Of a stretch of DNA of 15,966 bases, positions 7,514-7,975 are shown in pieces; the stretch's first letter is position 1; each line of letters starts with the position of its first letter. The notes beneath the pieces were generated by a model. It was given only the letters and a program-made list of their open reading frames with translations, had not been told where the DNA came from and did not search any database. This DNA is from a virus (lineage: Duplodnaviria > Heunggongvirae > Uroviricota > Caudoviricetes). Position numbers and translations under genes: made by a program. The DNA is taken from the IMG/VR virus record IMGVR_UViG_2872185964_000002. One strand, 5' to 3'.

Positions 7514-7975
7514 AAATGTCTCACAATTCAGGCGGTTGACTGTTGTCTGGTTTGCGGGGAGTTTGTAAAAAGAAACTGGCATGGTGAATCCCCCTGTGCG
7601 GAGGGCAATCAGCAACTGGTGTTTTGTCCCGACCCTTATCCTTTCTGTGCGGGTTCAGGTGCTGATACTGAACTCACCGGGAGGCACCCGGCACCATGCA
7701 ATGGCACATAGCGCCACTCTCCAGCCCCTCTCCGGAGGGGCTTTCTTATGGACAAAAAAATCCCGCGCTGGGAGACGCGGGCGGCAAGGAATAAACAACA
7801 AAACGTGAAGTAATATTTCAGCTGGCGAATAATATCCGACAGTAATCACTCTGCGCAATAGCGCGGCCTTTTTCATATTGCGGGCTGTTGTCTATCTTCT
7901 GCCATTGTCCTGTAACTTCCGGACTTCAGCCCGCTCCTCATTTTACTCACAATATTATCCAGGCCGGGAGGATTC

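Follow-up and report, generated by a model that had tools for sequence, protein, structure and literature searches.

The interval between the tRNA cluster and nanS-p in a Stx-phage-like prophage remnant: a probable cargo-free slot beside a conserved small-RNA module

A known cargo slot and its counterpart in the window

The late regions of Shiga toxin (Stx) phages and related lambdoid prophages, among them 933W, Sp5, phi24B and the methylase-bearing Stx2a prophages, share a slot for accessory "moron" genes, in which the order runs Q, PR'/tR', in some cases a methylase, the ileZ-argN-argO tRNA genes, a terminator, the cargo, a small RNA (sRNA) gene of the STnc100 family, a convergent minus-strand RNA and the sialate esterase gene nanS-p. 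Convergent pairs of Hfq-bound sRNAs at the moron site were described by Tree et al. (2014; PMC4104026) for eight prophages of the Sakai strain, namely, Sp3, 4, 5, 9, 10, 11, 15 and 17, and the slot with its STnc100/antisense-RNA module is already known. Here, we analyze the corresponding interval, positions 7514 to 7975, of the IMG/VR virus record IMGVR_UViG_2872185964_000002, a stretch of 15,966 nucleotides (nt) assigned to the Caudoviricetes and referred to below as the window. The window displays the same gene order and the same cargo boundaries as the Stx-phage slot, but differs from it in lacking stxA/stxB and the lysis and morphogenesis genes, in the presence of insertion sequence (IS) elements after nanS-p and in its sRNA allele.

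A first-pass annotation of the window had viewed the interval as an empty stx locus within an otherwise typical Stx-phage arrangement. That arrangement was borne out by the detection of Q, a tR'-like terminator, the tRNA trio and nanS-p (using Pfam, a terminator scan, ARAGORN and tblastn, respectively), as was the absence of toxin genes, since no similarity to Stx1A/B or Stx2A/B was obtained anywhere in the window (tblastn, best E value of 0.6) and the 1335-bp stx2 cassette is missing. Homology to phage 933W (blastn; L007 2970-3409) extends through the tRNA terminator to window position 7512 and resumes at 7517, which corresponds to L007 position 4745, the 933W DNA absent from the window comprising 1335 bp, which start 53 nt ahead of the stx2A initiation codon and end 41 nt beyond the stop codon of stx2B. 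The same two break points are observed in the Stx2a prophage of JNE141411, to which window positions 2955-7512 are 96% identical. The breaks at 7512/7517 therefore coincide with the boundaries of the stx2 cassette, and stx is indeed located between the tRNA genes and nanS-p in the Stx2 phages 933W and JNE141411. The Stx1 phage aligns with the window from 108 nt after stx1B onward, and the whole of the 7514-7975 stretch aligns with the spacer that separates stxB from nanS-p in both Stx1 and Stx2 phages. Because this spacer is present in stx-positive phages, the 460-bp gap is the conserved stxB-to-nanS-p spacer rather than a hole left behind by toxin genes, as the first-pass annotation had allowed. 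Conservation of the gap in stx-positive phages was among the outcomes which that annotation itself had named as refuting its view.

The content of the slot was surveyed in 77 loci in which the tRNAs as well as the module were identifiable. It consisted of stx2 in 18 loci, TerB together with DUF3927 in 13, a segment of approximately 510 nt in 18 (a class which holds an extra, partial STnc100-like copy), a 142-aa lipoprotein gene in 8, a type-I-M-like methylase in 2, 74 nt in 2 and other short segments in 3, while 13 loci, the window included, harbored an empty slot of 46 to 48 nt. The predicted lipoprotein (MYCRAVPVLVLILASLTTGC...) is encoded in the slots of L051, L052, L065, L079, L083, L093, L125 and L127. 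Using window positions 7455-7575 as a query and counting only contiguous, single-piece matches (94-99% identity), the empty junction was found in 937 of 5426 complete Escherichia coli genomes (~17%, or about one in six), including O157:H7, O111 and O103 strains as well as many isolates that are not Shiga toxin-producing E. coli. One of these genomes, FORC_069 (99.2% identity at the junction), carries it in an apparently intact prophage that includes holin, lysozyme, terminase and portal genes. The empty form is, therefore, an ordinary and common allele of a well-described cargo slot, and as such is already known.

Some further features of the slot edges were apparent. The stx2, TerB and methylase cargoes share their first ~10-60 nt past the tRNA terminator (TTTTTT-[A/G]TATC[T/C]GCGCC...; L004 7571-7745, L006 3576-3665 and L007 3373-3470), AAATTTT(T)AAATG forms the end of both the TerB and the methylase cargo, and microhomologies between the T-runs at the edges might mediate cassette exchange. 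An additional 28 nt at the junction of phi296 was considered as a possible stx scar, an idea which was rejected as these nucleotides occur only in phi296 and L037 and in no stx flank examined.

Taking these observations together, it is very probable that the interval represents a cargo-free moron slot in the late operon of a lambdoid, Stx-like prophage and that its 460 bp constitute the conserved module which precedes nanS-p. The proposed layout would comprise, in order, the tRNA terminator, the insertion point at 7513-7516, STnc100 with its terminator, a minus-strand terminator, a further hairpin, and the nanS-p leader and ribosome-binding site (Table 1).

Table 1. Features of the window discussed in the text
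Feature	Position	Strand	Basis or remark
rve transposase, left bracket	1-654		
DUF968 gene	4171-5166		
Q antiterminator gene	5184..5562	+	Pfam PF06530, E 2.6e-37 on 5246-5527
tR'-like intrinsic terminator 3' of Q	5631..5659 (hairpin 5631-5651)	+	Terminator scan: 8-bp stem and T-run
N6/N4 DNA methyltransferase	6126..7175	+	Pfam PF01555, E 1.4e-43
tRNA-Met/Ile2(CAT)	7225-7300	+	ARAGORN, Rfam tRNA
tRNA-Arg(TCG)	7307-7383	+	ARAGORN, Rfam tRNA
tRNA-Arg(TCT)	7398-7474	+	ARAGORN, Rfam tRNA
tRNA-cluster terminator, left edge of cargo slot	7489..7513	+	Terminator scan
Cargo junction	7513..7516	.	Empty in window; in relatives stx2AB (1335 bp), TerB+DUF3927, methylase, lipoprotein or other DNA
Conserved leader of sRNA module	7517..7549	+	TCACAATTCAG...TTGACT; kept at right edge of every cargo type
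STnc100-family sRNA gene, including its own intrinsic terminator	7550..7753	+	Rfam RF02076
STnc100 Rho-independent terminator	7723..7749	+	AGCCCCTC-TCCG-GAGGGGCT + TTCTTAT; terminator scan, Rfam alignment
21-codon open reading frame, judged non-coding	7748..7813	+	Product MDKKIPRWETRAARNKQQNVK
Convergent intrinsic terminator	7753..7781	-	CCCGCGT-CTCCCA-GCGCGGG (7781-7762) + A T7; terminator scan
Putative EcOnc42-type antisense RNA	7754..8054	-	Extent and promoters inferred
Conserved hairpin and T-run	7851..7873	+	Terminator scan; nearly invariant in six aligned spacers
nanS-p homologue (DUF1737 + SASA esterase)	7976..9940	+	Pfam DUF1737; tblastn in six frame pieces
IS3-family element, right side	10023-11060	-	
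Second IS3-family element, 1.3 kb	11641-12948		Splits an IS110-family element; absent from L105
ALIL pseudoknot	12499-12615		Within second IS3-family element
IS66 element	within 10200-15966		Right of prophage

The small-RNA module within the interval

The interval had been said to contain only hairpins and a 21-codon open reading frame (ORF). This description does not hold, as positions 7550-7753 constitute a complete STnc100 gene, followed by the minus-strand terminator (7781-7762) and the nanS-p leader. In a scan against all of Rfam, this sequence matched RF02076 with 130.6 bits (curated threshold of 47; E value of 5e-29) across model positions 1-206 of 206. It shares with the family the full-length model match, the same terminator and the same location directly 5' of the sialate esterase gene, and belongs to the EcOnc27/PasD group, EcOnc27 being synonymous with sRNA103. 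An STnc100 family member directly precedes nanS-p in all seven reference loci fetched (933W, phi24B, the Stx1 phage, the stx-negative phi296, and the prophages of UPEC-245U, N25 and 2012EL-2448). In 933W, 75 nt separate the stop codon of stx2B from the start of STnc100, in agreement with the published distance (PMC12370729). Homologues of STnc100/EcOnc27 are Hfq bound (PMC4104026, PMC5331693, PMC12370729), and EcOnc27 of Sp5, encoded on the plus strand, is detected as species of ~235 and 247 nt, the latter being destabilized without Hfq (PMC4104026). Preliminary reports on EcOnc27/sRNA103, i.e., on a homologue rather than on the copy in the window, describe raised fimZ and espA transcript levels (PMC12711010) and a predicted pairing with stxB (PMC12370729).

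The alignment of 72 distinct STnc100 copies, derived from 130 loci, yielded a consensus fold of 35 base pairs, 6 of which display compensatory changes. Those in the terminator comprise an exchange between AU and GC in 14 copies and one between CG and UA in 6 copies, and an exchange between AU and GC is also present in an internal helix, again in 14 copies. The terminator itself is the hairpin which the first-pass annotation had noted, its coordinates having been off by approximately one base (stem 7723-7730/7735-7742, loop 7731-7734). A 75-aa ORF on the plus strand (7581-7808), which starts at a conserved ATG of STnc100, was considered and rejected; among copies, the ORF varies between 11 and 75 aa in length and occupies different frames, and the invariant core of STnc100 falls in all three frames. 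STnc100 is therefore conserved as an RNA and is non-coding.

STnc100 copies are also encountered in other arrangements. Tandem or cargo-flanking copies are located 5' of nanS-p in L006 (4697-4903 and 5183-5395), and two copies are likewise present in L028, L031, L034, L047, L059, L065, L066, L079, L081, L087, L091 and L115. A scan of species-representative genomes with the exact 24-nt core of STnc100 returned seven matches (L132-L138), the carriers being Kosakonia sacchari, K. arachidis, K. oryziphila, an Enterobacter metagenome-assembled genome (MAG), two Proteobacteria MAGs and an 888-bp Xanthomonas pisi contig.

The identification of the terminator bears directly on the 21-codon ORF (7748-7813), which had been proposed as a gene whose strong Shine-Dalgarno sequence, GGAGGGG, would be sequestered by the hairpin. 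Both the ORF and the GGAGGGG motif exist, and the ATG lies 7 nt past the motif; ribosome footprints have, moreover, been reported on some STnc100 copies in EDL933 (PMC5331693). Nevertheless, it is highly improbable that the ORF is a genuine small-protein gene controlled by the hairpin. Across 62 loci of this sequence type, the 21-aa product is retained in 21, whereas in the other 41 the frame is shifted, truncated or deprived of its start: the product is cut to 17 aa in 18 loci, is frameshifted to 19 aa in 18 (as the length of an A-run varies) and measures 15 aa in 1, and 4 lack a start codon; GTG is the start codon in 5 of the loci with a product. The product matched none of the Pfam or NCBIfam models, and spacers of the 933W and N25 types carry unrelated, AsxR-type sequence in place of this stretch. 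The final bases of the STnc100 terminator form the start of the ORF, the greater part of which, i.e., its A-run and GC-rich stretch, is complementary to the minus-strand terminator. RNAs that end at the STnc100 terminator stop near the ATG and therefore would not contain the ORF. What resembles a Shine-Dalgarno sequence is one half, the 3' arm, of the stem of this terminator. The ORF, which we judge on this comparative evidence not to be a gene, is a by-product of two back-to-back terminators.

The minus-strand terminator abuts the 3' end of STnc100 and is conserved in the Stx1 phage, phi296 and UPEC-245U, the spacer type which carries it being found in Stx1 phages and stx-negative prophages. 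In 933W, the same convergent position and orientation are occupied by AsxR (RF02703, 88.1 bits; L007 4985-5037). The element in the window resembles AsxR and AgvB in that it would represent a minus-strand gene convergent with STnc100, with an intrinsic terminator at the 3' end of the latter, yet its terminator stem and conserved 3' ~42 nt are different sequences. Neither AsxR (RF02703) nor AgvB (RF02702) was matched at an E value of ≤1 in 3.1 kb or at ≤10 in 401 nt, and identity with either was rejected on the grounds of this lack of a covariance-model match and the different stem. A promoter-like sequence, TTGCGC-18-TATTAT (7858-7829), aligns, in our own reading, with the 933W sequence lying immediately upstream of AsxR.

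The closest described counterpart is EcOnc42 of Sp15, which is listed with a peak of Hfq cross-linking and analysis of cDNA (CRAC) at Sakai positions 2924036-2924118 and a size of ~271 nt (PMC4104026 supplement table); together with EcOnc21 and EcOnc08, it forms a set of ~271-nt Hfq-bound RNAs of the Sakai prophages Sp15 and Sp4 (PMC4104026). The EcOnc42 region of Sp15 is 92.9% identical over 380 nt to the minus strand of the window (8069-7690), so that the homology reaches from inside nanS-p to the minus-strand terminator and includes the CRAC peak. The latter corresponds to minus-strand positions 8054-7972 of the window, where it lies opposite the ribosome-binding site and initial codons of nanS-p; its distance from the terminator, ~300 nt, fits the ~271-nt band. 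EcOnc42 is documented by its table entry only. From this homology, we infer an EcOnc42-type antisense RNA that would run from inside nanS-p to about position 7754, and the minus-strand terminator most likely ends such an RNA; a shorter RNA of ~71 nt (7823 to 7753), possibly transcribed from the TTGCGC-18-TATTAT promoter, could also be produced. The element's own terminator (7781-7753), the conserved TATTAT -10 box and the lack of an AsxR/AgvB match are compatible with the less likely reading that it specifies a distinct, uncharacterized prophage RNA, either a ~71-nt anti-sRNA-like molecule or a ~270-300-nt, EcOnc42-type cis-antisense RNA across the ribosome-binding site of nanS-p. If so, this RNA could control esterase expression or act as a sponge for a host sRNA.

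Two other candidates for the minus strand were discarded. EcOnc15 of Sp15 maps between Q and stx1A and thus outside the spacer. An IraM-like protein encoded opposite STnc100 was considered in view of the RefSeq annotation of IraM between stx2B and nanS-p in JNE141411, but the minus-strand ORFs in the window (7655-7876 and 7478-7615) were without any match. ORF b70 of the Stx1 phage likewise matched no Pfam or NCBIfam model. The IraM anti-adapter gene of JNE141411 (L129 9277-9600, minus strand) matches NCBIfam NF007393 with 160.8 bits and is a second cargo gene, located between stx2B/STnc100 and nanS-p in the JNE141411 phage only.

The manner in which these elements may operate is proposed on the basis of established lambdoid biology and the cited studies of homologues, the sequence, family membership, terminators, conserved position and population frequency having been determined directly. 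In the repressed prophage, transcripts initiated at PR' or at the tRNA promoter would be stopped by the stacked terminators, which would insulate the late operon. The lysogen would produce STnc100 and the minus-strand RNA from promoters of their own, and both would act through Hfq, STnc100/EcOnc27 presumably functioning in trans as a base-pairing RNA. After induction, Q-modified RNA polymerase would read through all of the terminators into nanS-p and onward. Four terminator-like hairpins were counted within 7489-7866, and eight in the entire 3.1-kb scan, compared to 3.8 ± 2.0 in shuffled sequences.

Several points weigh against the interpretation of the interval as a cargo-free slot with a functional sRNA module. 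The 77 loci of the slot census are redundant and partly hand-picked. In the STnc100 copy of the window, a G at position 7602 is missing from hairpin 1, although it is present in all other copies of the 72-member set, and the conserved TGTTAAAAG motif carries a T-to-A change at 7567, where 70 of the 72 copies have T. The missing G is probably a sequencing error; if both deviations are real, this copy may be impaired. The TGTTAAAAG motif resembles an extended -10 box, and the change at 7567, if real, could weaken the sRNA promoter. These two differences, together with a central variable region (about 7606-7650) which is unlike that of 933W, distinguish the copy within the family. The Northern sizes of EcOnc27 exceed the 206-nt Rfam model, making 7550 a putative 5' end, and published work has so far defined neither the role nor the targets of STnc100 well. 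Finally, the footprints reported in EDL933 make translation within the family possible.

Origin of the unoccupied slot

The first-pass annotation left open whether the locus is an stx-negative relative or a vacated toxin site. The former is favored by the sequence of the adjoining sRNA, because the STnc100 allele of the window is of the type associated with empty and TerB-occupied slots and not of the stx-linked type: the module is 99% identical to those of empty-slot loci and 98% identical to those of TerB-slot loci, compared to 71-84% for modules adjacent to stx and 70% for that of JNE141411, whose backbone is the closest among Stx2 prophages.

A vacated site, i.e., one at which an ancestor carried stx1 or stx2 at 7513-7516 and lost it through deletion or through recombination with an empty-slot phage, would account for the exact coincidence of the breaks with the stx2 cassette boundaries, and the similarity of the backbone to the JNE141411 Stx2a prophage (2955-7512), extending to a Q protein that is 100% identical, is consistent with such an ancestor. 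T-runs flank several cargo types (GGGCCTTTTTT on the left and AAATTTTTAAATG on the right), so that a scarless deletion via microhomology is conceivable and an older loss of stx possible. Against this stand the allele comparison above, the lack of any stx remnant, and the fact that the empty junction is both common and uniform, as it occurs in the 937 genomes. We therefore regard a vacated site as improbable. The allele data exclude an origin by mere excision from any known type of Stx phage, the closest Stx2 relative included; the locus is a recombinational mosaic, the right half of which belongs to a non-stx allele group, and the window copy seems to belong to an stx-negative prophage lineage in which the cargo position is unoccupied.

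A further explanation, that the strain does carry stx and that an error-prone assembly lost or collapsed it at this position, has a bearing on the quality of the sequence. When compared to contig L105 (99.64% identity over 10.2 kb), the window exhibits 17 indels between positions 1809 and 10282, all of them single-base changes in G/C runs (16 contractions and 1 expansion, the latter at 5646), and two of the sites fall within Q (5214 and 5520), one within hairpin 1 of STnc100 (7602) and five within nanS-p (8451, 8608, 8816, 9486 and 9699). Such a pattern looks like homopolymer sequencing error rather than pseudogenization, and the apparent frameshifts in Q, nanS-p and other genes are therefore not to be taken as biology. 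Base quality is thus poor; however, homopolymer miscalls do not remove 1.3 kb, the same contiguous junction is present in the independent contigs L105, L117, L085 and L027 (99.0-99.6% identical), and it recurs among the complete genomes. The probability of an assembly artifact is accordingly considered negligible, and an stx-negative relative with an unoccupied slot remains the favored origin.

Genomic setting and significance

The genes that flank the interval conform to the Stx-phage pattern. Q is distributed over three frames as a result of the two contractions at 5214 and 5520, and its three pieces are, when frameshifts are allowed (tblastn), identical to the 126-aa Q of the JNE141411 Stx2a prophage. 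Positions 5582-5654, comprising the PR' leader and tR', gave sub-threshold Rfam matches (isrK-like, 18.3 bits; Trp-leader-like, 21.6 bits); in lambdoid phages, a short PR' transcript is located at this position. A methylase gene upstream of the tRNAs is also present in some Stx2 prophages and is annotated in JNE141411. The tRNA trio (7225..7474) is of the ileZ-argN-argO type, for which homologous genes are annotated in 933W, and the element at 7489..7513 is annotated in both 933W and phi24B as a terminator 5' of the stx genes.

The nanS-p pieces are 92-100% identical to a 653-aa SASA esterase (tblastn), the gene being interrupted at six points, namely, at a TAA (8207) and at five 1-nt contractions of G-runs. 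The TAA codon (8207-8209; TAC in UPEC129) closes the DUF1737 part after 77 codons and separates it from the esterase. As the near-identical contig L105 also carries this TAA, although not the nanS-p contractions, the stop codon is probably genuine. A split esterase gene has been mentioned for phage NC_049952 (Pas sRNA preprint).

Homology to other prophages is confined to positions 663 to 10199 (~9.5 kb). The IS element at the left end is presumably IS911-like. No lysis (S, R, Rz) or morphogenesis genes were found 3' of nanS-p, only IS elements having been detected in positions 10200-15966, and because the window lacks these genes, the prophage is an IS-bracketed remnant. None of the 5426 complete E. 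coli genomes matched the window at ≥99%, which makes a Shigella-like host rich in IS elements plausible, and the junction between prophage and IS had no exact counterpart among species-representative genomes.

Beyond its correct annotation, the locus is of limited importance. It illustrates that what adjoins the slot is no mere filler but a conserved small-RNA module. As approximately 17% of complete E. coli genomes possess a cargo-free junction, toxin carriage cannot be deduced from the joint presence of Q, the tRNAs and nanS-p. RNA-family models should be applied before such spacers are called empty or micro-ORFs are proposed within them.

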